This document shows positions 16,680 through 32,428 of a DNA stretch of 43,142 nucleotides, piece after piece; the first letter of the stretch is position 1, and each line of letters opens with the position of its first letter. Under the pieces are notes generated by a model. That model searched no databases. It had not been told where the DNA came from and saw only the letters and a list, made by a program, of their open reading frames with translations. The translations under genes were made by a program, and so were the position numbers. This stretch comes from Atribacterota bacterium. GTDB taxonomy: Bacteria; Atribacterota; Phoenicimicrobiia; Phoenicimicrobiales; Phoenicimicrobiaceae. The stretch is taken from assembly GCA_030666935.1 (NCBI GenBank), contig DAOUWX010000001.1, forward strand, positions 1-43,142, given 5' to 3'.

Positions 16680-16803
16680 TATCTTCCACAGCTCTATATA
16701 AACTAATTTTTTACCTTATTATATGAAAAATTAAGATCTCAACTAAAAATTATTTTTTAGATGCATTTCTTTTTGTATTATTTTATTATTCGACAATATA
16801 CCT

Positions 16804-16990
16804 AAAAATCCTTCTTTTTTAAATAAAATAAAAAAGCTCTTCAGTATTTAAACTAAAGGGCTGGTATTTTCTTGGCTCCCCCTATTGGACACGTTCAGAA
16901 CTTTTAAGGGAAATATTGCAATAGAAAATATTAGATTAATAAGTTAGTTATTCAATACTAAAGAAATATCTATAGACTAGAATTTGTACA
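16804..16990 (-). repeat. Junction element copy R1 (full length)
   Basis: Read on the minus strand: TTGTAC-aaattcta promoter-like box, then ..taacttattaatctaatattttctattgcaatatttcccttaaaagttctgaacgtgtccaatagggggagcca, a degenerate terminator hairpin, then AAAAAAGAAGGATTTTT. It aligns with R2-R5. Confidence 0.9.
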
Positions 16991-17000
16991 ATATTTTAAA

Positions 17001-17034
17001 ATAAAAAGCCCTTCAACTAAATGCCAAAGGGCTT
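17001..17034 (-). terminator. Intrinsic terminator of the GGDEF gene (same hairpin family as in the junction elements)
   Basis: Minus strand reads aagccctttggcatttagttgaagggcttTTTTATTTT: a 7-8 bp stem followed by a U-tract. Confidence 0.8.
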
Positions 17035-17158
17035 GGAATTATCAAATATCCTTATTAAGGAATACCAAGTAGATAACAGACTTTTTAATCGTAGTAATTA
17101 GCTGTCGGCTGAAAGAACAAGGTTAGGACTCTTTTGTGCAAAATCAATAAAGCATCGT

Positions 17159-18013: not shown

Positions 18014-18552
18014 ATTACCTCCATGATAGGTTAATACCTAACGGTTCATATATTTTAAAATTTTAGGAAAATAAATCACATTAGTCTCTGCAAAGTTTTT
18101 GAATGTCTCCAAATTAGTTTACATTTATCTTGTTATAATAGCATAAATAAATGGAAGCAACAATCTCGTTAAAAACGAACTGCACGTTCCTGACCACAAC
18201 AAAACTATTTTGATTCTATTTGCTGACGGTTTAATAGCAGCCCCAACACGAAATATCCTACCACCGCTTGAGACTCTTTACACATACTTTCTTTCTGGCT
18301 CACTATGTTACAATACATCTTCCATCACTTATGTGTGGTCTTGTTAATGATAATACAGATCTGCAATCACCCTAACTTCGTCGTGTTCTCCTTTTCCAAC
18401 TTTAAATCTTTCCAAATCGGTTGTACGATGCATTCCATTTTATGGTTCAAAAATGTATATGCAATGATGTCAGGAGGTTTATGTATATTAATGCTTACTA
18501 TAGTTTTCTGATTTTAATTAAGTATTTTTTGGTATATTCTACTCTTGCTATT

Positions 18553-18745
18553 AAAATCCTTCTTTTTCTGGAAAATAATTTATAAAAACAAAAAGCCCTT
18601 CAGCAAATTGCCAAAGGGCTGGAAATTGTCAGCTCCCCCTATTGGAAAGCTTTAGAACTTTTAAGGGGGAAATTGCACTTGAAAACATTAGATTAATAAG
18701 TTAATTATTCATTATTCTAGGTAATCTTTAAATAGAATTTCACAA
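18553..18745 (-). repeat. Junction element copy R2 (full length, subtype aaagcttt)
   Basis: Aligns with R1, R3 and R4. The terminator hairpin is agccctttggcaatttgctgaagggct followed by a T-run on the minus strand. The internal variable box is ggaaagctttag, as in R4. Confidence 0.9.
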
Positions 18746-18783
18746 TTTTATTGTAAAGAATTAAGGGTTCTAAAATGTTAAAC

Positions 18784-18828
18784 TTGGTGGAGGCTAGTAA
18801 ACGAGTTTCGCAACTTTTGTATGAATGG
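18784..18828 (-). repeat. Second repeat family (B): tRNA-3'-end-like fragment ending ..GCCTCCACCA on the minus strand
   Basis: acgagtttcgcaacttttgtatgaatgg matches 25796-25823 at about 24 of 28 positions. It sits immediately upstream (minus sense) of a junction element, as the other copy does. Confidence 0.6.
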
Positions 18829-18921
18829 GGAAACTGAAAAAGTATATCATAAGTTAGAAGAAGCAATTGGGATCTGTTAAGAATTAAAATATAGAGTTAC
18901 TCTTTAAGTATATTTGTTTAA

Positions 18922-19050
18922 TTAACTTGCATTTATGGTTAGAATAATTAATACCTTATAATCCTTAAGAGATAGGGCATGACCTAAATTGATCGCCGTC
19001 GTAGTTTTCCCGGTCCCGCCTTTAAAATTTAATATTGCAATTTTTCTCAT
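18922..19050 (-). pseudogene. ParA/Soj-family ATPase N-terminal remnant (42 codons)
   Basis: Below the ORF-track size cutoff. My translation is [42 protein letters not shown]. It has the deviant Walker A KGGxGKT and the usual KVLxID context, then breaks off. Confidence 0.65.
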
Positions 19051-19097
19051 AAATTCCCCCTGCTATATGCTTGTAATGTTTGTATTGTTTGTAATAC

Positions 19098-19520
19098 TTA
19101 ATATTTAAAAAATTTAATAGGAACATCTATATATATATTATCATCTACTATCCCTTCTGTTAATAATCCACCTTTTGGACTGTCTTTTTCTTCTTCTATA
19201 AAAAGACATAGAGGCTTCTCATGGCGCAGAATCGAAATAATATCACTGAATTGACTGATAGGATAATGGAGATTTATCTTATCCATCCATCCATATTTTT
19301 CTACCCAATTTGACCCATACTTTCTACACTCATTTGGAGGAATCTCTGAGTCATCCTTAAAGAATTTTATTGTTAGTGCGGTACCATCATGCTTTCGTTT
19401 TGCTCTTTTGTCATCACTATAACAACTTATTTTTATTATACAATCGCCTGGTTTTCTTTCTTTGTCATTGGCATAGTAACAAAGGCTGTAATGAGTAAAT
19501 TTTAGCTTTAAATAAGTCAT
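19098..19520 (-). CDS. Hypothetical protein (140 aa, soluble)
   Basis: Long ORF with an AAGGAGGT Shine-Dalgarno. It is the last gene of the small-protein operon. I recognise no family. Confidence 0.6.
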   Translation of the reverse strand: MTYLKLKFTHYSLCYYANDKERKPGDCIIKISCYSDDKRAKRKHDGTALTIKFFKDDSEIPPNECRKYGSNWVEKYGWMDKINLHYPISQFSDIISILRHEKPLCLFIEEEKDSPKGGLLTEGIVDDNIYIDVPIKFFKY

Positions 19521-19622
19521 TTTATAACCTCCTTTTTAATTATTTTTAATTAATATTCCAGTTTCGCTTTACTTAAAAAATACTTTTTCAGCTTTTGATA
19601 TAGGGAAAATTTCAGCAATTGT

Positions 19623-19913
19623 TTATTCTGCAAGCCTACCTACTTTCGGATCATCAGCGCTTCTAATTCTCCAGCAAAATTCAATGCGGGACCATATAAC
19701 AGTTTTTTCAGTTAGTTTCCGGAACTCTTTAAGGACTTCAGGATTGATTGCTAAATTGCCATTCCGATTTTCATATACGAATTGAGATCCGAATTTATCT
19801 TCTATCAAATACACAACTTCGTTTTGGTAAAGTTCACGCTTTTTATTTATTTGATTAAGCATCCAACGGGCTACATCAGAAGCTTTTATTAGCGAATTAT
19901 TTTTCTTTTTCAT
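19623..19913 (-). CDS. Hypothetical protein (96 aa)
   Basis: ORF overlaps the upstream DUF2158-like gene by 17 nt, which suggests translational coupling. Conserved-looking core FVYENRNGNLAINPEVLKEFRKLT. Confidence 0.55.
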   Translation of the reverse strand: MKKKNNSLIKASDVARWMLNQINKKRELYQNEVVYLIEDKFGSQFVYENRNGNLAINPEVLKEFRKLTEKTVIWSRIEFCWRIRSADDPKVGRLAE

Positions 19914-20097
19914 TTATATCAACTCTAATCAAGGAATCAGGTGAAAAATCGCCTTGTTCAAGCTTTTTTCCCGCAAACCACTGGCAAAGGACCCAATCAA
20001 AATGACGGGGATTTTTAACTGTCATAACAGGACCACCTGAAATAAGTTTGACTGTATCTCCAGTTTTAAATGCTTGATTTGATTTACTACTATCCAT
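19897..20097 (-). CDS. DUF2158/YodC-like small protein
   Basis: 66 aa. The pattern GDTVKLISGGPVMTV...CQWF...G.F matches the YodC-type small-protein family. AAGGAGGT Shine-Dalgarno upstream. Confidence 0.65.
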   Translation of the reverse strand: MDSSKSNQAFKTGDTVKLISGGPVMTVKNPRHFDWVLCQWFAGKKLEQGDFSPDSLIRVDINEKEK

Positions 20098-20118
20098 AAT
20101 TAAACCTCCTTAGTTTTA

Positions 20119-20304
20119 TTATTTGTTAAAATGCAACCCGAAAGCTTCATAAAGCATATCGATAAATCTTCTTCCTTCCGTCTCTATTCCTTTTTCTGCC
20201 CAAAACATTCTCTCTTCTAAGTCTTTTCTCCATAGCTTATAAATTCTGATTCCAATTACTGTAAGATAAATACAGATGATAATAACATAAATTGTATTAG
20301 CCAC
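20119..20304 (-). CDS. Small membrane protein (61 aa, 1 TM)
   Basis: GTG start after AAAGGGG. N-terminal TM helix ANTIYVIIICIYLTVIGI, then a charged tail. Confidence 0.5.
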   Translation of the reverse strand: MANTIYVIIICIYLTVIGIRIYKLWRKDLEERMFWAEKGIETEGRRFIDMLYEAFGLHFNK

Positions 20305-20341
20305 AATTAACCCCTTTTTTCATTTCTACCCCCTGTTAATT

Positions 20342-20539
20342 CTACTTTAATTTTGTCCACCCTGTACCTCTAAACCATATTTCACCCGTACCTGTTATTC
20401 TGTGTATTCTAAACGGTGTCTTACCACCAAGATAATCAGGCATATACCTATAAGGTGTTGGCCAAACATAGATCGCAAACAAGATCACTAATACGATTAG
20501 AATTAGTTTTATAATATTGTTTATTTCAAGTGCTTTCAT
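20342..20539 (-). CDS. Small membrane protein (65 aa, 1 TM; MKALE N-terminus)
   Basis: G-run Shine-Dalgarno (AGGGGGG). N-terminus MKALE..., paralogous to the 109-aa protein. One TM helix plus a Gly/Trp-rich tail. Confidence 0.55.
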   Translation of the reverse strand: MKALEINNIIKLILIVLVILFAIYVWPTPYRYMPDYLGGKTPFRIHRITGTGEIWFRGTGWTKLK

Positions 20540-20556
20540 TGTCTTTTTAAACCCCC

Positions 20557-20760
20557 CTAATTCTTTATCTTTGTCTTTTTATCCTCAAATAGTTTATATT
20601 CAAAAAAACAAACTATAATTAAAAAAAGAACCCACACAAACCAAGTTTTCCACCAATTAAAAGGATTAGAAGGCGATGTCTCATGCGCAATATATAAAGT
20701 AACAAAGAAACTAATAACCGGAACAAAGATTGCTAAAATTATCTTTTGGTTTTTATTCAT
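20557..20760 (-). CDS. Small membrane protein (67 aa, 2 TM)
   Basis: AAAGGGGAGGT Shine-Dalgarno. Two hydrophobic helices. Confidence 0.55.
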   Translation of the reverse strand: MNKNQKIILAIFVPVISFFVTLYIAHETSPSNPFNWWKTWFVWVLFLIIVCFFEYKLFEDKKTKIKN

Positions 20761-20835
20761 TTTAAACCTCCCCTTTTTCCTCCTTTTGTAATACTTTAAG
20801 TCGATTTTTAGCTTCCTGCATTTTTATTTCCTCTT

Positions 20836-21036
20836 CTAATTTTTTTCTTTTAATAGATAAACCAGTACTACCGGAATATATGCCATTAATAAAAAAATAT
20901 TTAACAAGGCCAAGGCTATAAAAGCTAAATAATAAATTACCTCTATTCCGTAATCAGCACTCGTAATTAAAATAAATGAAAGCAATAATAAACCAACATT
21001 TCCTATCATTAATAACAAAAAATGTATAATATTCAT
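20836..21036 (-). CDS. Small membrane protein (66 aa, 2 TM)
   Basis: AAAGGGGGG Shine-Dalgarno. Two hydrophobic helices. Confidence 0.55.
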   Translation of the reverse strand: MNIIHFLLLMIGNVGLLLLSFILITSADYGIEVIYYLAFIALALLNIFLLMAYIPVVLVYLLKEKN

Positions 21037-21085
21037 TTTTAAGCCCCCCTTTATTATTTTATAACCAAATCATTCATTTATAGTT

Positions 21086-21415
21086 CTAAGGTAAACTGCC
21101 AATCACTTTATTATTCTTGTTCCCAACTAATATTTCTCCATTATCGTTTTTACTAACTCTCATCTCAGCAACAAGAGTGCCGTCTTTGTTGTAAATTTGA
21201 ACTACTCCGTTGTAAATTTGAACTACTCCATTGTCTTCATCATTAGTCAATAACTTAACAACCTCTTGCCCCACATCATTCACAATTGCTATACGCCTCG
21301 CCCTGATCTCCTCCTGAATAGCCACCCGGCTTTCAACATTTCCATCTACCAAGAACACATAAAACACCAATATTGCTAATACCGTATAAAGAAAAATTCT
21401 TTCAAGTGCTTTCAT
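21086..21415 (-). CDS. Membrane-anchored protein (109 aa) with beta-rich ectodomain; contains a 7-aa tandem duplication
   Basis: AAAGGGGG Shine-Dalgarno. N-terminal TM helix (MKALERIFLYTVLAILVFYVFLV). NGVVQIY is repeated twice, encoded by a perfect 21-bp tandem repeat at 21188-21229. Confidence 0.6.
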   Translation of the reverse strand: MKALERIFLYTVLAILVFYVFLVDGNVESRVAIQEEIRARRIAIVNDVGQEVVKLLTNDEDNGVVQIYNGVVQIYNKDGTLVAEMRVSKNDNGEILVGNKNNKVIGSLP

Positions 21416-21557
21416 TTTTTTTGCCCCCTTTATTAATTAAATAACTCCTTCAGAATACTCTTAAATACCTAAAATTTTTGCCCGTGGTGCGATTCTTTAT
21501 CTTTTTACTGATACCCCCCCCAACCACTTTTATTATTTCAAAATATAATACTCTATC

Positions 21558-21737
21558 TTATTTGTATCTCCTTTTTCCTTCATAAAAAAACACATATATT
21601 ACTATTATGGTCCCAACGACAACAGGACACTGTAATTCCGGATTAGCTCGTTCGATTCCCATCAATATGGCTCCGACTATACCCACACAAATTAAAGCTA
21701 AAATAAACCTTTTTAAAAACCACCAAACTATATTCAT
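21558..21737 (-). CDS. Small membrane protein (59 aa, 2 TM)
   Basis: Favoured start is MNIVWWFLKRF at 21737 after GAAGGGAG. The ORF-track start at 21788 abuts the riboswitch remnant. Confidence 0.55.
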   Translation of the reverse strand: MNIVWWFLKRFILALICVGIVGAILMGIERANPELQCPVVVGTIIVIYVFFYEGKRRYK

Positions 21738-21816
21738 TTTTAAGCTCCCTTCTATATAGACCTCTTGATATTTTTTTACGGTTTGCATTTTTTACAGGGT
21801 CTCCTACCAGAAGCAA

Positions 21817-21975
21817 TTGCCCCGTCGGTGCTTTTTTGTATAAAGCTCTCCAGAGTTCTGTCCGGTAACAGTCCTTTTGCCTGAAAGTTTGGATACTTTT
21901 GGTATCTTGCCTCTTCGGCTCTTTTTCTTTTGTGATGGAAAGAAAAGGTCTATCCTGTTGCCTTCATCCGGGTTA
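21817..21975 (-). promoter_or_regulatory. Glycine riboswitch, copy 1 (aptamer 1 plus truncated aptamer 2; decayed)
   Basis: About 90% identical to copy 2 over roughly 160 nt. Minus strand reads ..caacaGGATAGacc..gaGCCGAAGAGGCAAgatacc..aaaCTTTCAGGCAAAAGGACtgtt..aaCTCTGGAGAGc..GCACCGACGGGGCAA. The conserved GGAGAG is GGATAG here, and homology stops right after GGGGCAA. No P1 3' strand (CAGAG) and no terminator follow. Confidence 0.7.
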
Positions 21976-22216
21976 TAATATTTTATTTTAAGTTAAGTAA
22001 TCATTTAAGATTGATAGTTGGATGGTTAGTATAGTTATAAGAATGTTACTTAGTGGGTCTCTTGGGATAGAGAAAAGGTGCTACTCTTAAGATAAATCTT
22101 AGATAATATAGCTTTTTATTTTAGGATAATGATATTATAGATATTCTGCTTGGATTAAAAATAGACTTCTTCAATTTATTTTTAATAGGCTGTTTTCTTT
22201 ATACTACAGTTCTATT

Positions 22217-22399
22217 AAAAAATCCTTCTTTTTCTGTGAAAATAATTTATAAAAAACAAAAAACCCTTTAGCAAAATGCCAAAGGGCTTGGAATGTCTTG
22301 GCTCCCCCTATTGGACACGTTCAGAACTTTTAAGGGAAACATTGCAACTGAAAATATTAGATTAATAAGTTAGTTACACACAATTAGAATATCTTCAAG
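22217..22399 (-). repeat. Junction element copy R3 (full length, subtype gaacgtgtcc)
   Basis: Minus strand reads cTTGAAGatattctaattgtgtgTAACTAacttattaatctaatattttcagttgcaatgtttcccttaaaagttctgaacgtgtccaatagggggagccaagacattccaagccctttggcattttgctaaagggTTTTTTGTTTTTT...AAAAAGAAGGATTTTTT. Confidence 0.9.
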
Positions 22400-22449
22400 A
22401 TAAATTGATATACATCTTTAAATACTTTTAGGTCGTAATATAGCGCCAT

Positions 22450-22482
22450 TTTTAAAAAAATTTATAGGGGGCAAAGCCCCCT
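22450..22482 (-). terminator. Intrinsic terminator of the 829-aa lipoprotein gene
   Basis: Minus strand reads aGGGGGCtttGCCCCCt, followed by ATAAATTTTTTT. It lies 30 nt after the stop at 22513. Confidence 0.8.
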
Positions 22483-22512
22483 TAACCCTTAAATAGTTAA
22501 ATTGTTAAATGG

Positions 22513-25002
22513 TTAAAAAGCCCGAACAGCACGAACCCGGAATGTACTGAGCTTGAAGTGGGAGTTCTGAAGACCATAGTAAAAATAATTTTCCCATGCG
22601 AAGGTAGCACTGTACTCCGACGAACTCCAATAGCTGCCCTCATCGAAACCGCCAACACCGTGTTTATGTAGATTGACATACATCTGATTAAGCTCATCTT
22701 TCGAGGGCAAAAACCAGTCACTATAGCCCCCGTAAACCAGATCATCGCAAAACTGAGCTGCACGGTCTGTTTCAGAATGACTATTTAACCATGTCACAAT
22801 TTTAGTCGTATTACTCTGCCCGGTTCCAATCTCTGCTCCTGTTCCCCCAATTAAAGTTTCATAGCTGCCCCACTTTTTTAGCGCCTCAGTAGATACAGGG
22901 GCGGCTTCTAAATACCTCCAGCCAGAAGAGTAAATTCCTTTGTCGTAGAAGATGTATCCTCCCGCAGGTCCGATGTCGCGCAGGGAGTAGGTACCATTCT
23001 CTTTTACTATAACAATAAAACTCTGAGTATCAAAGAGCTCTCCATCAGATACTTTTACAGTAACTCCAAAACTTCCAGTTGCAGTGGGAGTCCAGGTAAT
23101 CAATCCGGTTGAAGAATTTATGCTCATTCCTGTAGGTTTGGTAGTTAGAGAATAAATTAGGGTATCTCCGTCAGAATCAGTAGCATTTAAATCATAGCTA
23201 TATGGTTCGTCTTTGGTTGCAGAAGTAACTGCGGTAGAAGTTATAACCGGGGGATGATTTACGTCTCCTACCGAAATAATTACTTGATCACTATCGGTTG
23301 CTTCCCCATCACTTACTTCACACTCAACGGTATAGTTACCTTCAGTAGATGGGGCTCTCCAGGTTACAGATGAACCTGAAGTACTTCCCTCAAATGTCCC
23401 TCCGTTTTTATTCCAGGTATAAGTAAGGGTATTCCCAACATCCTCGTCAGAGGCAGTACAGGTTATAGTGGTAGTCTCATTTATATTGATACTGGAGGGA
23501 TTAGCAGTAAGGCTAGAGATTACTGGGGCATGATTAACCTCTGCGCTAACTGTTACTGCTACAGTATCAGTCTTGGTAATATCATTTTCAGTATATCCCA
23601 CAGTAATAGTAGCACTACCAGGAGCAACTGCCGTAATCACGCCGGTATCGATTGTAGCAATTCCGATATTGCTTGAATCATAAGTGCAGGCATTAAGAGC
23701 TATATCAGCGGTAGACCCATTATCATAGTAAGCAGCAATCGAGTTGATAGATTGAGAATCTCCCACTCCTAAATTCATTGTTTCTGGAGAAACCTCAATA
23801 CTAGAGATTGAATCTTTCGGAAACTTCAGATTTTCTTCACCTCGCACTATCCAAGTCGTATCAGGGTAATAGGGATCAGTCCTTTCTTCATATGCATCAC
23901 CTGTGGTTAAGTCTCCTTCTCTCATTTTTTCGATTAAATCACATCCTTGGGACAAGCCAAAGCCCCCTGATGTTGTATCAGTAAATCCAAAGTAAGCTCC
24001 CGCACCTTTGTCTTTAAACACATTCCATAGGGCATCTGTTTTTGCACTTTGACAAGATATATTAAGAATGATTGTATTAGAAAAGTTACTTGATAAGTTG
24101 GAATTAAACCAGTTTGAACTTACTGCATAGACGGGCTCTGAAACTAAAACTCCGCTTTCTCCTTTTACCTTCATATTTTGCCAAATAGCCATGTGGTTCA
24201 AAAGCAACCAGGTATAATAACCAAGACTATTTAAATACCAAGGAACAACTTCACCAGTAGCAAGCCACTTACCTTTTGAGCCATGAGTATTTAATACAAC
24301 CATACCATTATAATCAGTAATATTCTGTAAAGAAGCCACATCAGCTTCTTTATTATCTAATGTGGCAATATTAAAACTTAAAGCAGAATCTTCAAATCTG
24401 TTAACATATTCTGATACAATATCATGACTCCATTCTTCGCCATCATTCGTGGTACCACTCCAGCTATTAAATTCTTCTGCAAAAGGAACCCAAATCAAAA
24501 CATTTCGACCGCCTGTATATACTATATCGTCTATATCTTTAGTATTTTGCGTACTGTGATTATCTAATTCTGATTTTATCTCTATAGTATTAGTAAAGCT
24601 TGTTTGAAAATTATCTGAAATGGGCAACATGTTTTCTGCTATTGTATTCCTTCCCAAGGTTGGCTCGGCATTGAGGTCCTGTAAAAGAATGAAGCTGATA
24701 AGTCCTGATGTATAGTTTATTTGCAGTAGATTTCCATCAATAACAGTGCTTTCTACACAAGTTTGCTCATTTAGATACTCACTTAAAATATTAAGGGTGC
24801 TCTCCATACCAATACCCGGACCTTCCACAATATCATTTAGTTTTTGCTCAGCTAAGTCATGAATAGGCAAAACTTCTTGAACAACTGCCTGATCAGTATC
24901 AGGTGATGCTTCGCCATTGGGCGTTACCCCCCCGCCACCGCAACCTGATAAAAACATAGCTAATAGGAAAAATATTATTACAAAAAAATATTTCCTTTTC
25001 AT
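22513..25002 (-). CDS. Surface lipoprotein: N-terminal globular region, one Big_2 domain, two cadherin/PKD-like Ig domains, C-terminal DUF1566 (Lcl C-terminal-like) domain
   Basis: Lipobox ..AMFLSGCGGGG. Big_2-like SIEVSPETMNLGVGDSQ...ATITVGY. Two repeats start NHAPVISS../NHPPVITS.. and carry DxDxD-type motifs (ASDEDVGNTLTY, ATDSDGDTLIY). The C-terminus reads GGYIFYD..WRYLEAAP..DWFLPSKDELNQMY..YWSSSE..VRAVRAF. AGGAGG Shine-Dalgarno upstream. Confidence 0.85.
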   Translation of the reverse strand: MKRKYFFVIIFFLLAMFLSGCGGGGVTPNGEASPDTDQAVVQEVLPIHDLAEQKLNDIVEGPGIGMESTLNILSEYLNEQTCVESTVIDGNLLQINYTSGLISFILLQDLNAEPTLGRNTIAENMLPISDNFQTSFTNTIEIKSELDNHSTQNTKDIDDIVYTGGRNVLIWVPFAEEFNSWSGTTNDGEEWSHDIVSEYVNRFEDSALSFNIATLDNKEADVASLQNITDYNGMVVLNTHGSKGKWLATGEVVPWYLNSLGYYTWLLLNHMAIWQNMKVKGESGVLVSEPVYAVSSNWFNSNLSSNFSNTIILNISCQSAKTDALWNVFKDKGAGAYFGFTDTTSGGFGLSQGCDLIEKMREGDLTTGDAYEERTDPYYPDTTWIVRGEENLKFPKDSISSIEVSPETMNLGVGDSQSINSIAAYYDNGSTADIALNACTYDSSNIGIATIDTGVITAVAPGSATITVGYTENDITKTDTVAVTVSAEVNHAPVISSLTANPSSININETTTITCTASDEDVGNTLTYTWNKNGGTFEGSTSGSSVTWRAPSTEGNYTVECEVSDGEATDSDQVIISVGDVNHPPVITSTAVTSATKDEPYSYDLNATDSDGDTLIYSLTTKPTGMSINSSTGLITWTPTATGSFGVTVKVSDGELFDTQSFIVIVKENGTYSLRDIGPAGGYIFYDKGIYSSGWRYLEAAPVSTEALKKWGSYETLIGGTGAEIGTGQSNTTKIVTWLNSHSETDRAAQFCDDLVYGGYSDWFLPSKDELNQMYVNLHKHGVGGFDEGSYWSSSEYSATFAWENYFYYGLQNSHFKLSTFRVRAVRAF

Positions 25003-25165
25003 GGCTTAAGCCTCCTTCTAATTAAATAAAAATCTTTTTTAAGATTAGCTCTCAATTATTTACAAAAATATTGACTTTTAAATTTATATCTCAATATTTG
25101 ATATAATGGAAATATTACAATTTTTTAAAGCATGGTAACAATACAAAAAGCGTGTCTATATAAAC

Positions 25166-25458
25166 AAAAAAGGACAGAATAAAAATAGTTATATTACTAT
25201 TCTTACTCTGTTCTTTTACCTGAAAGATTCTTCCTAATTGATTAGGAGAAAGTTTTTTCAGTAAATTCTGTATGGGTTTTCCTAAAGATTAGGAGTTGCC
25301 CCGTCGGTGCTTTTTAGTATAAAGCTCTCCAGAGTTCTGTCCGGTAACAGTCCTTTTGCCTGAAAGTTTGGATACTTTTGGTATCTTACCTCTTCGGCTC
25401 CTTCTCTTTTACGATGGAAAGAAAAGGTCTCTCCTGTTACCTTCATACAGGTTACAAT
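25166..25458 (-). promoter_or_regulatory. Tandem glycine riboswitch, copy 2, with terminator expression platform
   Basis: Aptamer 1 (minus strand): aacaGGAGAGacc...gaGCCGAAGAGGTAAgataccaaaagtatccaaaCTTTCAGGCAAAAGGACtgtt. Aptamer 2: aaCTCTGGAGAGc...GCACCGACGGGGCAA...CTTTCAGGTAAAAGAACAGAG. The P1 3' strand CAGAG overlaps the 5' arm of the terminator cagagtaagaatag/ctatttttattctg, which is followed by TCCTTTTTT (25166-25210). The layout matches my recollection of the B. subtilis gcvT leader. Confidence 0.85.
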
Positions 25459-25533
25459 ATTTAATTTATTAAATTTATAGAATATAAAATATTTCAGGCT
25501 ACATGTTATATTACAAATACGACATAAGGTTTT

Positions 25534-25730
25534 AAAAATCCTTCTTTTTTGGGAAAATAATTTGTAAAAGAAAAAGCCCTTCAGCAAATGCTAAAGGGCT
25601 TGAAAATGTCTGGCTCCCCCTATTGGAAAGCTTTAGAACTTTTAAGGGAAGTATTACAACTGAAAATATTAGATTAAATCAGTTAATTCTTAATTATTAG
25701 GGGTAATATTTAACAATTAGAATTTGTAAA
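25534..25730 (-). repeat. Junction element copy R4 (full length, subtype aaagcttt)
   Basis: Aligns end to end with R1-R3. The promoter-like box is TTTACAaattctaattgttaaaTATTAC. The terminator is aagccctttagcatttgctgaagggcTTTTTC. Confidence 0.9.
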
Positions 25731-25740
25731 ATATATATAA

Positions 25741-25823
25741 AAAAGCCCTTCAGCAAAATGTCGAAGGGTTGATTATTGTCTTGCTCCCCAGACAGGACGA
25801 TTTTCACAACTTTTGTATAAATG
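25741..25823 (-). repeat. Family-B fragment plus terminator (R4b): degenerate tRNA-3'-end-like ..TCGTCCTGTCTGGGGAGCA followed by the junction-type hairpin
   Basis: Minus strand reads catttatacaaaagttgtgaaaatcgtcctgtctggggagcaagacaataatcaacccttcgacattttgctgaagggcTTTTTT. Its 5' part matches 18784-18828, and its GGGGAGC-spacer-hairpin part matches R6. Confidence 0.7.
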
Positions 25824-25829
25824 ATAACC

Positions 25830-26241
25830 ATAAAATTTGCCAACATTAATATACATTTTCGACACAAAAACCTAGATCTTTTTTACAGTAGATTTTAACC
25901 AAATGTATATGCTCTTACAAGGGTTTTCTCGGTATGCAAGTTTTTCTGGTATAAAGTATTACCTCTCTTAAACTACCCCCAGATTTCCATTGTAATAAGG
26001 TCTTTTTTTCTCTAAATTCCTTGTTGAAAGGGGTACTTTTTCTACTATTATATCCTGTATATTAAAGTTTCTTAAAATATCCTCAAATCTCTAAAATTTA
26101 TACCCTAAAATCAAAAATTTTCCTTTTTATATACTATATAATTTATCCTAAATTAGAATTAACCTTGAACGTATTACAGGAATTAGTTAATTTATTTACT
26201 TCGTCATTATTTAATGGTTCTCTTTTGTATTGGTAGGGCAT
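25830..26241 (-). pseudogene. Tyrosine recombinase (phage-integrase family) remnant: N-terminal part only, multiple frameshifts and stops
   Basis: AGGAG then ATG at 26241 gives MPYQYKREPLNNDEVNKLTNSCNTFK..*. The R-x-P-L-x3-E-V-x2-L-x3-C pattern is typical of the start of the catalytic domain. Shifted frames give SRLILI and RFEDILRNFNIQDIIVEKVPLSTRNLEKK. The catalytic R-H-R-Y region is absent. Confidence 0.4.
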
Positions 26242-26330
26242 AAATTTTCTCCTAAAAAGAAGCTGCCGAAGCAATCTGGGCGAAGCATCGCAAACACGCT
26301 GTTAGCTGAAATACGACAATTTTTTCAGAA

Positions 26331-26717
26331 CTAAAAAATTGGGAACGATAATCCAATCGATACCCCTATAGGCAAACCTACCGAAATACTAAACCCATTT
26401 GCCCCTATTTTCTTGGCTAAGGAATTTAAAACAAATTTAATCTTATTAATCCATTTTTCAAGTCTACAAATAATGGATGGTAACTTAACCGCCCCTGCAT
26501 TGAGAAATGAAGTTAACCGTAACATTGCTACAAATGCAGAGTCAGGTTTATCCTCTTCAATTAATCTTTTAATTTGTTCAAGTTTCTCCTCCATGAACTG
26601 GTCAATATTTTCATTGATTACTTGAGCCATATCGATGGTCATTTCTCCTGTAAATTCCCATTCTTCTAATACTGAGTAAACCTCCAAAGCAGGTTGTTCA
26701 CTGGGTCCAACTGTCAT
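26331..26717 (-). CDS. Hypothetical protein (128 aa) with acidic helical N-part and hydrophobic Gly-rich C-terminal tail
   Basis: The ATG overlaps the stop of an upstream micro-ORF (ATGA). The C-terminus is GANGFSISVGLPIGVSIGLSFPIF. Confidence 0.55.
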   Translation of the reverse strand: MTVGPSEQPALEVYSVLEEWEFTGEMTIDMAQVINENIDQFMEEKLEQIKRLIEEDKPDSAFVAMLRLTSFLNAGAVKLPSIICRLEKWINKIKFVLNSLAKKIGANGFSISVGLPIGVSIGLSFPIF

Positions 26718-26782
26718 TGGAAAACAAAAATTAGCAAAATAGTGAGAAAAACGAGAAACAAATAATCTTTTTTCAGTTTCAT
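26714..26782 (-). CDS. Candidate 22-aa hydrophobic micro-protein/leader peptide (MKLKKDYLFLVFLTILLIFVFQ)
   Basis: Below the ORF-track cutoff. A strong GAGGAGGA Shine-Dalgarno sits 7 nt upstream of the ATG at 26782. Its stop overlaps the next start (ATGA). Confidence 0.4.
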   Translation of the reverse strand: MKLKKDYLFLVFLTILLIFVFQ

Positions 26783-27228
26783 AATAATCCTCCTCGTATA
26801 ATATATTTATAATAATTAAATATTCAATATATAGAAGGGATGTCTTTATCTTAAAATTTCCTTTTGAAAATTAATCCTAAGACAGCTCTTGACATATTAC
26901 CGCATCACTTTTATTTTAATTCAGTTCATTTAAATAAATAAGTATTTCAGCTAACTTGTTTATATCTGAACATGTTCGAAATATTCTTACTTTTTTTAGT
27001 TTAGTTTTTATATAAAGAGTTGTCAATAATTATTAAAAAGACGTCAAAATGGCGTAGCTTAGTAATTTAAAATATAAGTAAAATAAGGATTTTAATTTAA
27101 GGAAAAGTATTAAATGTCGCCCTTTTATACAGAAGGCGACAAAAAATAATTATAGACCGACTAAAATAATCTAAGAGTTATAAAATAAATTTTAATAGCA
27201 TTTATATTATACTTACAATATGAAGTAA

Positions 27229-27263
27229 GAGGGAGGATGTCTTAGACACCCCCCCCTTTTTTT
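27229..27263 (+). terminator. Orphan plus-strand intrinsic terminator
   Basis: gaGGGAGGATGTCttaGACACCCCCCCC followed by TTTTTTT. This is an 11-position stem with two A.C mismatches and a 3-nt loop. No plus-strand ORF lies upstream, and it sits inside the 3' UTR region of the minus-strand 218-aa gene. Confidence 0.5.
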
Positions 27264-27368
27264 GAACTTACTTAAGGCAATCTTATGTAGTAAATAGAGA
27301 TCCTCGATAAGTTGCACGGCTGGTTTCTTTAATCATCTTTTTTAATTCGTCAATTGGCATTAATTGAG

Positions 27369-28025
27369 TTATTTATCTTTCTTTTGCATGTGAATTTTAA
27401 GCAGATCATCTACAACAGCCACATTGATGTCCGCCTCATCAGCAGCTTTCACCAAGGCTTCCACGCTGATACCTTTTTTTTCACAGAATTGACTTACAAA
27501 TTCATTGGACAGTGGGACTGGCATTTCCAGTGTATTCTGTAACCAATGAACAAGGATATATCTCTCATCTTGTTTTGACAGTTCACTAAAGGAGAATATC
27601 TTATCTAATTCTTCCATCATAAGGACACCGTGTTTTCGTAGAAACCTCTGAAGCTTCCCTTGGCATGAAATATGAATACCTTTTGACATCTCGCATATTG
27701 CAAGTATACAGGCTTTGGCAACTTTCTCTTCAAAGCCATTGTGAACCAGAAGTTGACGTATAAGTGAAGCTAGGTTATCACCTTTTCCACCCTTACCCCC
27801 TATCAATTGTGCCTCTGCAAGGCTCTGTACATCGAAAAGATTTAGGCCGGCCATGCACGAAACTATATTACGAATGATAACCTCGTCGCCACTTGTAATT
27901 TTCTGTAAAATGCAATAACAAAGTTCACTTAGTCTATCCCTCTCATCCTCCCAATTGTAAATCTCAGGGAGATCAGCTCTATGCTTTCTATAGACTTCGC
28001 TTAGAACTTCACGTAATTTTTTCAT
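27369..28025 (-). CDS. Hypothetical protein (218 aa), weak HhH-GPD/Ogg2-like resemblance
   Basis: Favoured start is MKKLREVL at 28025 after AAGGAGGG. The segment RLSELCYCILQKI resembles the ELCFCILTAN helix of archaeal Ogg2-type glycosylases, and PVPLSNEFVSQFCEKKGI sits where P-V-D-x-H-V-x-R normally does. No clear HhH GxG motif or catalytic Asp is visible. Confidence 0.55.
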   Translation of the reverse strand: MKKLREVLSEVYRKHRADLPEIYNWEDERDRLSELCYCILQKITSGDEVIIRNIVSCMAGLNLFDVQSLAEAQLIGGKGGKGDNLASLIRQLLVHNGFEEKVAKACILAICEMSKGIHISCQGKLQRFLRKHGVLMMEELDKIFSFSELSKQDERYILVHWLQNTLEMPVPLSNEFVSQFCEKKGISVEALVKAADEADINVAVVDDLLKIHMQKKDK

Positions 28026-28039
28026 TATTAGACCCTCCT

Positions 28040-28297
28040 TTATAAGTGTCGGTGTATCCACCATTTTAGCGACCGTGGTGAACGATTAGCTGCAGCAGTA
28101 GAAATAGAATTGGACCATCCGAACCTCTGATCAAGGCGTGTGCCGACTCCCCATCCAATCCGAAATGCTGTTATACCTGCCCCAATTGCTCCGAGTCCTC
28201 GAGCTGGACCCAACAATCCTGTAGGACGGTAAGGACCTATAAGTCGTGGACCAAACGGGGCACCGGTTGGAGATCTGGTAAATAGGGGTGATGTCAT
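28040..28297 (-). CDS. Gly/Pro/Arg-rich mini-protein (85 aa) with a glycine-zipper-like segment
   Basis: Favoured start is ATG at 28297 after AAAGGAGGGGG. The sequence is MTSPLFTRSPTGAPFGPRLIGPYRPTGLLGPARGLGAIGAGITAFRIGWGVG... The locus is conspicuously GC-richer than its surroundings. Confidence 0.6.
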   Translation of the reverse strand: MTSPLFTRSPTGAPFGPRLIGPYRPTGLLGPARGLGAIGAGITAFRIGWGVGTRLDQRFGWSNSISTAAANRSPRSLKWWIHRHL

Positions 28298-28879
28298 ATT
28301 ATACCCCCTCCTTTCTTTTCTTATAATAAACATATTTCTCAATTAGTATGATTTTATTATAAAATCACCTCCTCCCTATCAGCCAAAGGGATACTATTAA
28401 TAATACCATTATTTCAATTTTTTAAATCAATTTGTGTTTGATTCTCTCGCTTGATCAAGTGAAGCCATATTTTTAAACTAATTATTTTTTGAAACTTTTA
28501 ACCTTTGTTGTATATAAATAGACTAAATATTTATTCATAAAAGACTATATGGAATGATTTTTTAGGGAACATCAACTAAAATATGGTTAATGTAAAAGTA
28601 GAAACATTGAAGGGGGACTAATCTTATTATTATCTTTGATCATAAATTATAGGAATATTTTCTATAAAATAATGGTTTAAAAAAGTCTGATATAACATTT
28701 AATTAGTTACAAAAATTAAATTTATATTTAGTGGAGTATCCTCCTTGACAAAACAATAAATAACTTTTTAAGTAAATTACGTAAATCATTTCCAAAGAAC
28801 TAGGAATTATCCCTTCGAACCTTTAAAGCATAAATATTAACTTAAACTATCTTTATTTATTATATACTACATTTTTATT

Positions 28880-28990
28880 AAAAATCCTTCTTTTTCTGGA
28901 AAATAATTTACAAAATAAAAAGCCCTTCAGCTTGATTGCCAAAGGGCTGGAAATTGTCAGCTCCCCCTATTGGACACGTTCAGAACTTTT
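28880..28990 (-). repeat. Junction element copy R5 (5'-truncated in minus sense)
   Basis: It shares the AAAAAGAAGGATTTTT box, the terminator hairpin and ..gttctgaacgtgtccaatagggggagctg. Homology ends at 28990, where an unrelated sequence is fused. Confidence 0.85.
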
Positions 28991-29035
28991 TGTTGGGGTG
29001 AGATTATAGAAGAATTACAAAACACCTATAAACTA

Positions 29036-29091
29036 AAGGAGTTTATTAATCTTCATGTTAGTGTTCCAAATAACATCTAGTGTCACGTCAC
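29036..29091. repeat. Direct repeat A flanking the methyltransferase cassette
   Basis: cctataaactaaaggagtttattaatcttcatgttagtgttccaaataacatctagt aligns with 30204-30259 at about 87% identity by eye. Confidence 0.8.
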
Positions 29092-29260
29092 ATAACATAC
29101 GTCGGATAAAGTCGTTTTAGTTTTATCCGAGCTTTATTCGTTGTAAACTGCCAATTGATTTTTGCATTCAGGTTATTCCTATGATTCTGTCAGGCATCAG
29201 TCTCTCTTCTGATTACTGAAATATTATCAATTCTTCTGTTTAGACATTGTCAATATTTAT

Positions 29261-29283
29261 AAGAAAAGACGCCAAGAGGGCGT
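29261..29283 (-). terminator. Intrinsic terminator of the methyltransferase gene
   Basis: Minus strand reads ACGCCctcttGGCGT followed by CTTTTCTT. A related module (acgtcaaaatggcgt plus aaataaggatttta) recurs at 27031-27094. Confidence 0.55.
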
Positions 29284-29366
29284 AAACATATAATCTGAAA
29301 TACATATAAAATAAGGATTTTATTTTTTAGGAGAACAAAGAATATCATAAATATTCAATTCTTTAT

Positions 29367-30158
29367 TTATAAAGCTTTAAGTATATAATACAAGTTGCCT
29401 AATTCTCCACTTATATGAGTGTCTAAAGGGATTTGATTTAACTTTTCATCATATACTGCTTCCAATTTAAATTTTTTTGATTTGCAAATAAGATTTTTTA
29501 AATCTTCAAAAAACCAAAGTCTTAATACATGATGTTCTTCCAAAATAATATGTCTGCCTTTATCATTAATTTCCATTTTGCAAAGCTCAAAACTAATCTT
29601 CTCTTGCTTATCTTGTTTTTCAACGCCCCATATAGTTTTTATTTGAATTCCTTCTCTTTCCGTGATCCATTCTTCCTCTTCATGAGGATTTAATCTATCC
29701 CAGGCACAGGAAAGATGAATAATGTAAATTCCATTCCTCTTTATTGAATCCCCGATATTATAAAAATGGGTTATTATGTCATCATCATACAAAAGGTAGC
29801 CTACACTATTTATTGAATTGATAGCTGCATCAAACTTGGTTTTAAATCTTATTGACTTCATATCCCCTGTTATCACTTTGGCCATATTTTGTAATTTTGA
29901 CTCTATTATTCTCTTTTTTGCATAAGCTACCATTTGAGAATTATTATCATATCCTGTCATATGATATCCATATTTTGGTAAATCAACTATAAATCGCCCA
30001 GTTCCACATGCGGGCTCTAAAATATTCTTTACCTTGAAAGGAGTATGTCTCTTGAAAAGCTCGCGAAATATTGTAGTTTCCCGAGAAATATCCCATGAAA
30101 AAGCAATATCATAGTATTTTGGAAGATTATATAATTTTTCTTTCATTAATTTTATCAA
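29367..30158 (-). CDS. Class I SAM-dependent methyltransferase
   Basis: 263 aa. Motif I is ILEPACGTGRF, followed by an acidic post-I residue (GYD) and downstream motifs (AAINSINSVGYL). Confidence 0.85.
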   Translation of the reverse strand: MIKLMKEKLYNLPKYYDIAFSWDISRETTIFRELFKRHTPFKVKNILEPACGTGRFIVDLPKYGYHMTGYDNNSQMVAYAKKRIIESKLQNMAKVITGDMKSIRFKTKFDAAINSINSVGYLLYDDDIITHFYNIGDSIKRNGIYIIHLSCAWDRLNPHEEEEWITEREGIQIKTIWGVEKQDKQEKISFELCKMEINDKGRHIILEEHHVLRLWFFEDLKNLICKSKKFKLEAVYDEKLNQIPLDTHISGELGNLYYILKAL

Positions 30159-30904: not shown

Positions 30905-31630
30905 TCAAATTTTATTGACCCAACCTTCGAAAATGAATTTATTTAATGCCTTAAACATAATTTCAAGTGCCTTTTTCCAACTTGCGTTTAAATTATCCTT
31001 CATCTCTTCATCGGCATTATCTGTTATCACCCGAAAAGAAAAGCTTTTTATCTCATTTAGTTGTGCTGTCTTTAAGACCGCTGATGTTTCCCAATTGCAT
31101 GCTGTTGCACCTAATTTATGGTTTAACTCTTGACGAAGCTCTTTATTGTTTACATCCTTTTCCCCACTGGCAATATTACCAACCCTTATTGTAGTTCCCA
31201 TATTTTCCTTAGCCCAATTTGAAAATTCTTTTAGTACTTCTTTAGAAAAAACTTTATTAAGTACTGTACTTGTCTTTAAATCATCGGGCATTTTAGCTAA
31301 TTTATCTGTTGGACAGACATCGTATTCAAATGAATGCTTGCCGCAGATGATATCATAAAGATTTACGTCAACAGATAATGAACCGGAAGCACCAACATCA
31401 AATACAAAGTCAGGTTCAAACTTATCAATAATCAATTGTGTTGCTGAAGCGCAGTGTATTTTCCCTGGACCTGCTTTTATAGCTATTACTTCTACATCTT
31501 TTTCTCTTCTAGATGAAATTAACCTTCCTGCTAATTCAGTTTCATTATGTAATTTTAATATCTCCTTGCAACTCTGATATTCGATATCGCAAGGACATAT
31601 AATACCAATTCTAACTAATGAATTAATCAT
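30905..31630 (-). CDS. PNP_UDP_1-family nucleosidase/phosphorylase (MTA/SAH-nucleosidase-like)
   Basis: 241 aa with the pattern IGIICPCDIE..., GPGKIHCASATQLII, DVGASGS, IASGEKDV and NWETSAVL, as in Pfs/MtnN-type enzymes. Confidence 0.75.
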   Translation of the reverse strand: MINSLVRIGIICPCDIEYQSCKEILKLHNETELAGRLISSRREKDVEVIAIKAGPGKIHCASATQLIIDKFEPDFVFDVGASGSLSVDVNLYDIICGKHSFEYDVCPTDKLAKMPDDLKTSTVLNKVFSKEVLKEFSNWAKENMGTTIRVGNIASGEKDVNNKELRQELNHKLGATACNWETSAVLKTAQLNEIKSFSFRVITDNADEEMKDNLNASWKKALEIMFKALNKFIFEGWVNKI

Positions 31631-31837
31631 AAAATTACTTCACCTCAGATTTACCTTTAATAATACGAACCACGTTCTTAAATGTGTCAGGGGAACGGTT
31701 CTTTAATACACTTCAGGGAAAACATGGGGTCGGGCCTTCATATTTGTCATAATTAATTACTTAAAAGAAACTTTTTGAATTATTATAAAATAATAATCAC
31801 AAAATTGTTTATAATTAGACATTACGGTAAATTTTTC

Positions 31838-31919
31838 AAAAAACCTTCTTTTTTTGAAAGATAATTAAAAAAAACAAAAAGCCCTTCAGCAAAAAGCCAA
31901 AGGGCTGGAAATTGACAAG
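31838..31919 (-). repeat. Junction element copy R6 (terminator plus distal box only)
   Basis: Minus strand reads ..GGGGAGCttgtcaatttccagccctttggctttttgctgaagggcTTTTTGTTTTTTTT...AAAAAAAGAAGGTTTTTT. It is colinear with the 3' half of R1-R5. Confidence 0.85.
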
Positions 31920-31949
31920 CTCCCCGGGTAGGATTCGAACCTACAACCC
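31920..31949 (-). pseudogene. tRNA 3' fragment (T-arm plus 3' acceptor strand); no 5' half present
   Basis: Minus strand reads gggtt-GTAGG-TTCGAAT-CCTAC-CCGGGGA-G, a canonical T stem-loop plus a 7-nt acceptor strand and discriminator. Upstream sequence has no complementary TCCCCGG, D-arm or anticodon stem. Confidence 0.8.
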
Positions 31950-32191
31950 TCTTTTAGCAAGCCTCTATTTATTTATCAATAAATCGTTTCGTATTGCGTA
32001 TCGAGTATCGCGTGAAGAAAAAGAACTCGATAAAAAAGAAGATAGAAAAACAAAAGCAATAAATATTCTTTCCTCCTTTCTTACTACCCCACTAAAGTTT
32101 ACACTAACAATTTCCTACTTCACTAACAAATTAAAAGTAGACTCTTAAGAATAACCTAAAATTGTAATAATATAGAGTCGGAAAATAATGC

Positions 32192-32220
32192 TTGACGAAA
32201 TTACAAAAGTATTATATTAT
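32192..32220 (+). promoter_or_regulatory. Sigma-70-like promoter of the xylose block (TTGACG-N17-TATTAT)
   Basis: The hexamers are read directly from the sequence. It lies about 210 nt upstream of the isomerase ATG. Confidence 0.5.
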
Positions 32221-32428
32221 TTATATTAATATAATACTTAATTTAAGTAATATAAAAAGCCTTCTTAAAAAATATCTTAGATTGCATAATTCTAAAAATG
32301 CACCCGCTAGTAACTACAAAACGGTAAAAAAGAGACGAACCATACAGACTTCAGAGAAAAAGAGAGATAAAGAATGTCTTTTTCTAAATTTATTTTAATA
32401 ACTATTTAATTATACAAGGAGTAAAAAA

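Follow-up and report, generated by a model that had tools for sequence, protein, structure and literature searches.

What does a tandem glycine riboswitch do in front of a gene for a surface lipoprotein? The textbook glycine riboswitch is wired to the catabolism or transport of its own metabolite and occurs in one to a few copies per genome. The question is raised by a 43,142-nt stretch of DNA from an Atribacterota bacterium (contig DAOUWX010000001.1 of assembly GCA_030666935.1; here, the window), in which an earlier note, made from the sequence alone, had placed an intact tandem glycine riboswitch of the terminator type at 25166-25458, ahead of a large lipoprotein gene, as a new regulon member. 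Our preferred reading, which we consider probable, is that the lipoprotein mRNA has as its 5' leader a true tandem glycine riboswitch, 25451-25166, which acts in a glycine-dependent manner and belongs to a portable family. The surface target unrelated to glycine metabolism stands, whereas the novelty does not lie in a single case: the window element belongs to a large multi-copy family in which the riboswitch has been redeployed. The earlier note had the coordinates right; the strand, a truncated second copy at 21980-21789, and the multi-copy family had escaped it.

Two glycine aptamers on the minus strand

The window riboswitch, at 25451-25166, is located on the minus strand and comprises the following parts.

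25446..25338, minus strand: glycine aptamer 1 (RF00504, 65.7 bits, E = 1.4e-11, full model, positions 1-94)
25335..25205, minus strand: glycine aptamer 2 (RF00504, 39.8 bits, E = 9.4e-05, with a 54-nt insertion)
25442..25450, minus strand: leader strand of a putative P0/kink-turn (K-turn), CUG-UAU-GA-A (sequence inspection)
25166..25217, minus strand: intrinsic terminator, the expression platform (terminator scan and folding)

Both aptamers score above the Rfam RF00504 gathering score of 32 bits, and matches above this score were also found at about 20 loci related to the window riboswitch. Aptamer 1 is built from P1 (GGUAACAG/CUGUUACC), a 10-bp P2, and P3a/P3b. Aptamer 2 has the P1 strands ACUCUG/CAGAGU, a 4-bp P2, and a P3 with a lineage-specific insertion of ~75 nt that carries two UCCUAA/UUAGGA hairpins. 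The elements that the earlier note had named, GGAGAG, GCCGAAG/CACCGACGGGGCAA, and CUUUCAGGNAAAAG(G/A)AC, are present as described apart from two substitutions in aptamer 2, which are weighed below; the conserved core (GGAGAG; GCCGAAG; CUCAGGCAAAAGGAC) is complete in aptamer 1.

The leader at 25450-25442 can pair with the inter-aptamer linker at 25342-25337 (G-GA-CAG) in a P0/K-turn layout, with CUG/CAG as the C-stem, the 3-nt bulge UAU, tandem GA/GA, and P1 as the NC stem. The bases concerned are at least 90-97% conserved among 96 metagenome copies that had been found with an unrelated 18-mer. A K-turn is assigned to the window leader because the established rules for tandem glycine riboswitches fit. 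Inspection, and not covariation, points to a leader-linker P0 helix with a K-turn that agrees with K-turn rules.

Compensatory changes preserve the tandem fold

The canonical tandem structure, with 61 pairs in nine helices, was imposed on an alignment of 33 distinct full-length copies, columns 120-138 of which were set by the search pattern. Standard pairs fill 95.0% of cells, compared to 36 to 54% when the 3' partners are slid. Double-sided changes occur at 15 pairs, compared to 5.9 ± 1.7 in shuffled alignments, none of 500 of which reached 15, and to at most 8 pairs in the slid controls; the shuffle controls overstate the significance because the copies are closely related. Helices 1 to 4, which make up aptamer 1, are 93 to 98% paired and show compensatory changes in P2, P3, and P3b. 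The clearest case is aptamer-1 P2, with six compensatory pairs and two copies whose stem sequences are entirely different. Helices 5 to 9, of aptamer 2, are 90 to 99% paired. In both aptamers the P1-P2-P3 three-way junction is predicted with the support of covariation.

The terminator shares its 5' arm with aptamer 2

At 25211..25174 the terminator scan identified a hairpin with a 16-bp stem, after which comes CCTTTTTTG. Folded alone, 25222-25163 yields -21.2 kcal/mol (z = -5.7), with a stem that reaches AAAAG/CUUUU, and the entire 288-nt leader yields -87.8 kcal/mol (z = -6.5). In the minimum free energy (MFE) fold of the leader, aptamer 1 is canonical and the terminator replaces aptamer-2 P1. 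The 5' arm of the terminator is the aptamer-2 J3/1 stretch AAAAG(G/A)AC plus the P1 3' strand CAGAGU, and the single mismatch of the extended stem is the G-to-A change of window aptamer 2. The overlap of the aptamer-2 P1 strand with the terminator 5' arm, proposed in the earlier note, was thus confirmed by the terminator scan, the alignment, and the MFE folds. The terminator is found in all 33 aligned copies, with compensatory changes at the pairs 260:310 (GC/GU/AU) and 269:301 (AU/GC), and the sequence similarity of the copies stops within a few bases of the T-run. A terminator that shares its 5' arm with aptamer-2 J3/1-P1 is the layout expected of a glycine-ON switch.

Position of the riboswitch ahead of the lipoprotein gene

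The elements that surround the riboswitch on the way to the lipoprotein gene are these.

25505..25546, minus strand: promoter-associated motif AAGAAGGATTTTT, then the -10-like stretch TGTCGTATTTGTAATAT, ~60-100 nt upstream of the riboswitch
25003..25165, minus strand: terminator-to-start spacer of 163 nt, with the ribosome-binding site (RBS) GAAGGAGG at 25018-25011
22513..25002, minus strand: 829-aa lipoprotein gene (open reading frame [ORF] and Pfam)

From the end of the T-run (25166) to the ATG (25002) there is a gap of 163 nt; the earlier description of an 829-aa ORF about 160 nt after the terminator was accurate. The motif AAGAAGGAYTTTTAAA..TGTAGTATATAAT is found 20 to 250 nt upstream of the riboswitch in nearly all of the 32 family copies examined. 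Its AAGAAGGAYTTTT part occurs eight times in the window (0.78 expected), always on the minus strand and in intergenic DNA. The interval from the terminator to the lipoprotein ATG has no copy of AAGAAGGAYTTTT; the nearest one, at 25546-25534, is upstream of the riboswitch, and the sequence at 25505..25546 is a putative promoter of the leader. A separate promoter between 25002 and 25166, which the earlier note had raised as the other way of accounting for lipoprotein transcription, did not emerge: the interval has no conserved motif, and sigma-70-like matches are at the level of shuffled sequence (37 in the region versus 32.7 ± 6.1), for a pattern that may not be that of Atribacterota. Furthermore, the start codon of several family members is just 19 to 33 nt past the terminator and, therefore, these leaders have no room for a second promoter. 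The position of the motif, the gap without it, and these short distances favor the riboswitch as an mRNA leader.

Short distances also bear on the idea that the riboswitch is hitch-hiking DNA, carried along in a repeat composed of a dispersed element (D1, described below), promoter, and leader that recombination or transposition has spread; the window leader would then leave the lipoprotein unregulated, and the lipoprotein would be transcribed from its own promoter in the gap. We regard this as quite improbable. The copies are ~86% identical with their loops included, D1 often precedes them, and truncated, decaying copies exist, such as 21980-21789, all of which a passive repeat would explain. 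It would also accommodate the lipoprotein homologues P0004 and P0003, which have no riboswitch, and the break of short-read assemblies of the lipoprotein gene at the repeat borders. Decay, however, is unlike the compensatory changes that preserve nine helices and the terminator, and a terminator cannot be neutral when it stands between a promoter and its gene. The 19- to 33-nt leaders and the absence of the conserved motif from the gap count against it as well, as does the L005 orthologue, which keeps the leader though its gap sequence has diverged.

The same linkage was found in relatives, as the earlier note had suggested surveying: the P0005 orthologue (71% identity) has D1, tandem riboswitch, terminator, ~120 nt, and ATG in this order on contigs of three samples, each a metagenome, and Lcl_C is the commonest domain of first genes. 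Between the window and L005, only the last 25 to 50 nt of the terminator-ATG spacer, the RBS region, are conserved. P0004 is preceded by D1 and a ~200-nt spacer without riboswitch, and P0003 likewise has none. Therefore, the riboswitch is an optional part of a mosaic leader.

A multi-copy leader family in Atribacterota

The glycerol kinase (GlpK) of the window is 85 to 92% identical to proteins of Candidatus Atribacteria, Atribacterota, and Candidatus Infernicultor metagenome-assembled genomes (MAGs), and its GNAT protein is 87% identical to one of an Atribacterota MAG. Homologues of the lipoprotein are confined to metagenomes and MAGs of the Atribacteria, Atribacterota, or Infernicultor type. 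When one genome per GTDB species was scanned, the 19-mer GGACAGAACTCTGGAGAGC was found at 58 loci, and an nhmmer search with the window leader returned ~45 near-full-length copies, most of them in Atribacterota MAGs and several per MAG. SMAG_U10207 has copies on six contigs, and the single-cell genome SCGC AAA255-G05 has three on one contig of 91.6 kb. A few copies come from short contigs that had been assigned to bins of unrelated taxa, probably by mis-binning.

An independent 18-mer from aptamer 2, TAGGAAGAATCTTTCAGG, was found in at least 120 metagenome stretches and had no match on viral contigs, which gives no sign of phage carriage; family matches, from Atribacterota MAGs and sediment metagenomes, number at least 174 in total. 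The 96 distinct full-length metagenome copies among the matches listed have a mean pairwise identity of 86% (range, 73 to 95%). In this independently fished set, 70 of ~85 copies have an intact linker and aptamer-2 core CTCTGGAGAGCT, and 58 of 73 have an intact aptamer-1 core. On this basis, we conclude that the window copy is one of a multi-copy, portable promoter-riboswitch-terminator leader family of JS1-type Atribacterota.

Copy number of this kind leads to another explanation, in which the terminated leader RNA is the main product and works in trans, either as a small RNA or as a sponge for glycine. Terminated riboswitch leaders that act in trans are known in other bacteria, and here each genome has many near-identical copies, each with a promoter-like motif and a strong terminator. 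Against it, the copies are always in sense orientation directly upstream of a same-strand ORF, and neither a conserved single-stranded seed nor complementarity to a target was seen, with no search aimed at them. We give this explanation very little credence.

Genes downstream of the family

The first downstream proteins of 30 copies were scanned against Pfam one by one, as were another 109 distinct proteins, taken from the metagenome set. The set of 30 contains lipoproteins with immunoglobulin-like (Ig), PKD, PEGA, CarboxypepD_reg, Lcl_C, or beta-helix domains and a caspase C14-Big_2-PEGA lipoprotein. Binding proteins are represented by SBP_bac_1 (two), SBP_bac_5, and Peripla_BP_6, and enzymes by two patatin-like lipases, an alpha/beta hydrolase, a metallophosphoesterase, and a cyclopropane-fatty-acid synthase. 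A PAS-HD protein, an OLD-family AAA_15-TOPRIM nuclease, a CsgG/LpoB-like protein, and many proteins without known family complete the set. In the 109 proteins, the commonest domains were Lcl_C (eight), Flg_new (seven), CarboxypepD_reg (five), and SBP_bac_5 (three); the set also contains catalase, restriction, and helicase domains as well as C39/C70 peptidases. Glycine-cleavage and symporter families are absent from the 25 commonest of the 133 Pfam families in these 109 proteins, so that single cases are possible. The usual context, gcvT/H/P or a Na+/alanine-glycine symporter, which is typical of RF00504 without strictly defining it, was not found.

Exported proteins are enriched among the first genes. 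Among proteins of at least 200 aa, a hydrophobic N-terminus is found in 55 of 101 first downstream genes compared to 66 of 244 among the remaining ORFs of those loci (odds ratio, 3.2; P = 2e-6), and a hydrophobic N-terminus with a lipobox in 34 of 101 compared to 14 of 244 (34% versus 6%; odds ratio, 8.3; P = 1e-10). The lipoprotein enrichment and the frequency of Lcl_C therefore indicate that the riboswitch-lipoprotein pairing of the window is typical for the lineage. Glycine demand was considered as a rationale; the glycine content of the downstream proteins is slightly raised (7.1% versus 6.1%), a difference that we judged uninformative.

Several points weigh against a glycine-dependent leader that has been kept by selection. 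At 86% identity between copies, the conservation is due in part to recent duplication or gene conversion and not to selection. In window aptamer 2, AAAGGAC reads AAAGAAC, a G-to-A change in GGAC that is found in 1 of 33 family copies, and P3 has GACG for GAAG, a variant of ~40% of copies. The first downstream ORFs were called mechanically, and their signal peptides and lipoboxes were assigned by crude heuristics. None of the 30 genes scanned singly codes for glycine cleavage or glycine/alanine transport, and in other riboswitch classes a regulon unrelated to the ligand pathway has signalled a changed ligand. The gap contains weak sigma-70-like matches (9/12), for example at 25094-25065, and could hold an unrecognized promoter. 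Finally, we infer the transcription start, glycine as the ligand, read-through, the ON logic in vivo, and the physiological rationale from the features described above.

The main alternative is that the architecture of a glycine riboswitch senses a different ligand here, as a specificity variant, which we consider unlikely. It would account for the lack of a glycine catabolism or transport gene among the downstream genes examined and for the ~75-nt insertion and the substitutions in conserved elements of aptamer 2. The window riboswitch also gives a match to the glycine-GGAnGA model (RF03166), at 78 bits (65.7 bits for the truncated second copy). These scores are below the gathering score of 110 and do not place either copy in RF03166, and a match so far below threshold is expected of a clan relative; a literature search on "glycine-GGAnGA" found one paper, with a note on thresholds only. 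Against a changed ligand, it is the standard glycine model that gives both aptamers their best scores, each above its threshold, and the cores (GGAGAG, GCCGAAG, CUxUCAGGCAAAAGGAC) are kept in most copies (58/73 and 70/~85). In addition, an arrangement published in PMC9481103 ties ordinary tandem glycine aptamers to CsgG/curlin-type genes.

Proposed mechanism and implications

In the mechanism that we propose for the tandem glycine riboswitch, transcription would start at the conserved promoter-like motif ~60-100 nt upstream. In the absence of ligand, the 3' segment of aptamer 2 (AAAAGAAC-AGAGU...) would enter the 16- to 21-bp terminator hairpin, followed by the U-run, and transcription would stop. 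With glycine bound, the two aptamers would dock with the help of the leader-linker K-turn. The docked state would keep aptamer-2 P1 and J3/1 in the aptamer and block the terminator, and RNA polymerase would then read 163 nt further into the lipoprotein gene. Copies of this leader have multiplied within genomes of JS1-type Atribacterota and stand before genes for lipoproteins, solute-binding proteins, hydrolases, and defense or accessory functions. Since these targets are heterogeneous and unrelated to glycine, glycine seems to be a broad cue for exported and accessory genes and not a feedback signal for catabolism or uptake. More speculatively, glycine may be a cue for peptides or necromass that switches on surface proteases, binding proteins, and lipases.

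A wider claim is that in JS1-type Atribacterota the cassette has been copied by recombination before dozens of operons per genome, mainly those for lipoproteins, surface proteases or adhesins, solute-binding proteins, hydrolases, and other accessory functions, with one amino acid gating, as c-di-GMP riboswitches do in other bacteria, an exoproteome and accessory regulon in which some leaders combine the cassette with a cyclic di-GMP-I (c-di-GMP-I) aptamer; we see about equal reason to accept and to doubt it. In Atribacterota, an uncultured and globally abundant subsurface phylum, a structurally intact switch is amplified and tied to genes for surface and accessory functions. Should glycine be the ligand, riboswitches for amino acids can serve as global environmental or nutritional signals, for instance as a cue for protein necromass, and the family offers a handle on the control of the Atribacterota cell surface and secretome. 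If the ligand is not glycine, the family would be an obvious place to seek a new specificity. The portable cassette further illustrates how a cis-regulatory RNA can spread inside a genome.

The lipoprotein behind the window riboswitch

The lipoprotein begins with the signal peptide MKRKYFFVIIFFLLAMFLSGC and has the lipobox MKRKYFFVIIFFLLAMFLSGCGGGG at its N-terminus. Pfam matches are He_PIG (1.9e-15), a C-terminal Lcl_C domain (DUF1566; 2.5e-09), and PKD_4 (3.1e-07), and Big_2 falls slightly below its cut-off (22.2 versus 22.8 bits). Of the Big_2/cadherin-like/DUF1566 lipoprotein described in the earlier note, the lipoprotein assignment and the DUF1566 domain were upheld and Big_2 missed its threshold narrowly. 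Residues 1-400 have no Pfam match, and a family profile search found none among PDB sequences. This region holds an N-terminal domain without annotation.

23803-24927, minus strand: N-domain of the lipoprotein, residues 26-400 (~375 aa; AlphaFold2 model and Foldseek)

His240-Gly241 and Cys317 are invariant in this domain among 15 homologues. The AlphaFold2 model of residues 26-400 has a mean predicted local distance difference test score (pLDDT) of 76.5, and its best Foldseek matches in the PDB are SAVED-CHAT, RgpB gingipain, caspase-8, separase, and Craspase CHAT, all of the caspase fold (clan CD) but weak (E values of 4e-3 to 0.1; template modeling score of ~0.3). We tentatively read the lipoprotein as surface-anchored, with Ig-like repeats and a probable clan-CD peptidase domain, and its role is probably that of a clan-CD protease or adhesin.

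The only other assembly with an identical lipoprotein gene is a 2,824-nt Logan contig from SRR6660645 (L001). It extends beyond the lipoprotein ORF by 132 nt on the upstream side and by ~200 nt on the downstream side; both end points coincide with borders of the riboswitch and D1 repeats, as expected if such repeats break short-read assemblies.

A truncated second copy and the D1 repeats

A second, incomplete riboswitch copy lies 3' of the lipoprotein gene, 3.5 kb downstream of the window riboswitch.

21789..21980, minus strand: degenerate second riboswitch copy (RF00504 aptamer 1 only, 54.2 bits, 21967..21859)

This ghost copy is 92% identical to the window riboswitch over 177 nt and stands immediately upstream of a small membrane-protein ORF. 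Its aptamer 1 has a GGAUAG core and a P1 mismatch, its aptamer 2 ends after GGGGCAA, and it has no terminator. From these features it looks like a decaying remnant and not a functional singlet. Other truncated family members (L017, L019, L060, and L072) have different break points, which suggests repeated independent decay.

The ghost copy is followed at 19098-21788, on the minus strand, by nine tightly packed small ORFs (59 to 140 aa). Several are predicted membrane peptides, DUF2158 and DUF6953 have one match each, and similar RBS-containing repeats (D5) precede the ORFs. One of the ORFs in this interval (21086-21415, minus strand) has a perfect 21-nt tandem duplication, two copies of GTTGTAAATTTGAACTACTCC at 21188-21229, which repeats the seven residues NGVVQIY in a 109-aa hypothetical protein.

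The D1 repeat (110 to 180 nt) consists of a conserved block AAAAGTTCTGAACGTGTCCAATAGGGGGAGC, a strong terminator AAGCCCTTTGGCA..TGCTGAAGGGCTTTTT, AAGAAGGAYTTTT, and a TGTAGTATATAAT-like stretch. Eight copies between 16.8 and 31.9 kb, all between co-directional genes, punctuate an accessory island of the window.

16790-16908, minus strand: D1 copy 1
16991-17056, minus strand: D1 copy 2
18534-18674, minus strand: D1 copy 3
22200-22334, minus strand: D1 copy 4, preceding the ghost copy
25530-25646, minus strand: D1 copy 5, adjoining the window riboswitch upstream
25738-25814, minus strand: D1 copy 6
28861-29039, minus strand: D1 copy 7
31831-31938, minus strand: D1 copy 8

Across related loci, D1 has 60 matches. 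As a structured RNA or riboswitch it was rejected: RNAalifold on 28 copies predicted the terminator hairpin only, without compensatory pairs, and an Rfam search of 18500-29500 at E values up to 5 returned glycine-clan matches and two noise matches only, with none for D1. It was likewise rejected as an integron attC site, as its only hairpin is the GC-rich stem followed by the T-run, inspection revealed no pair of core sites, and the window has no tyrosine-recombinase ORF. D1 may be a terminator-promoter insulator or an element like repetitive extragenic palindromes.

In a subset of leaders, the riboswitch is separated from the D1 promoter motif by a conserved spacer element of ~200 nt (...AAGCAGAATATCTATAATA...CCCAAGAGACCCACTAAGTAACA...). 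This element was seen in ~12 of 32 family copies, with sites at ~21985-22190 of the window (minus strand), L002 9460-9650, and L005 5160-5360; in L002 it stands without any riboswitch. Traces of mobile elements near related cassettes are an IS200-type Y1 transposase gene (L002 4807-5235) and a group II intron domain (RF00029; L060 7132-7201). Elsewhere in the window, the GC skew changes sign at ~31600-32430, the cumulative skew has its minimum near 32 kb, and the genes diverge there from minus to plus strand. A replication origin near 32 kb was rejected, as DnaA boxes number 16 compared to 13.8 expected and do not cluster there.

Comparison with known systems

The closest textbook system is the ON-type tandem glycine riboswitch of the Bacillus subtilis gcvT leader (RF00504). 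The two share a pair of three-way-junction aptamers joined by a short linker, the P0/K-turn and the core nucleotides, and one terminator that overlaps aptamer-2 P1. They differ in that the window family is not found at gcvT, gcvP, or a transporter gene and numbers many copies per genome, where one to three are usual. Its copies are ~86% identical, carry the ~75-nt P3 insertion, and mostly precede exported or accessory targets. Published surveys of glycine riboswitches take glycine cleavage and transport as their contexts (PMC6944388, PMC12452182), and our literature search found no paper that joins Atribacteria with riboswitches.

The only precedent that we found is that of Sherlock et al. (2022, RNA Biol 19:1059; PMC9481103, section 33 and Table 2), who describe six glycine/c-di-GMP-I tandems as predicted AND gates, some beside CsgG/curlin genes, and who speculate on glycine demand. 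Like the window family, those tandems have an ordinary dual glycine aptamer that comes with a separate expression platform, and they are linked to adhesion or surface genes; in the available text they are presented as six cases and not as a multi-copy family of more than 100 members. Two family leaders, at L039 997-1095 (plus strand) and L062 485-395 (minus strand), have a c-di-GMP-I aptamer (RF01051, ~46-47 bits) directly after the glycine terminator, and both precede lipoprotein genes; one family copy precedes a CsgG/LpoB-like gene. In the window itself, RF01051 had no match at its gathering score or at an E value up to 5. The six published cases may be a subset of the Atribacterota family.

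The ghost copy of the window resembles the ghost-aptamer glycine riboswitches of Crum, Ram-Mohan, and Meyer (2019; PMC6944388) in that it keeps aptamer 1 and part of aptamer 2, as a decaying tandem would; it differs in having also lost its expression platform and in the core mutation GGAUAG. In the scale of its deployment, the family is like the c-di-GMP-I and -II riboswitches of Firmicutes and Deltaproteobacteria, which have many copies per genome, often before genes for large surface-anchored adhesins, proteases, and other envelope proteins. These belong to other aptamer families, and their ligand is a global signal, not a pathway metabolite; in the Atribacterota family, the corresponding signal would be an amino acid.

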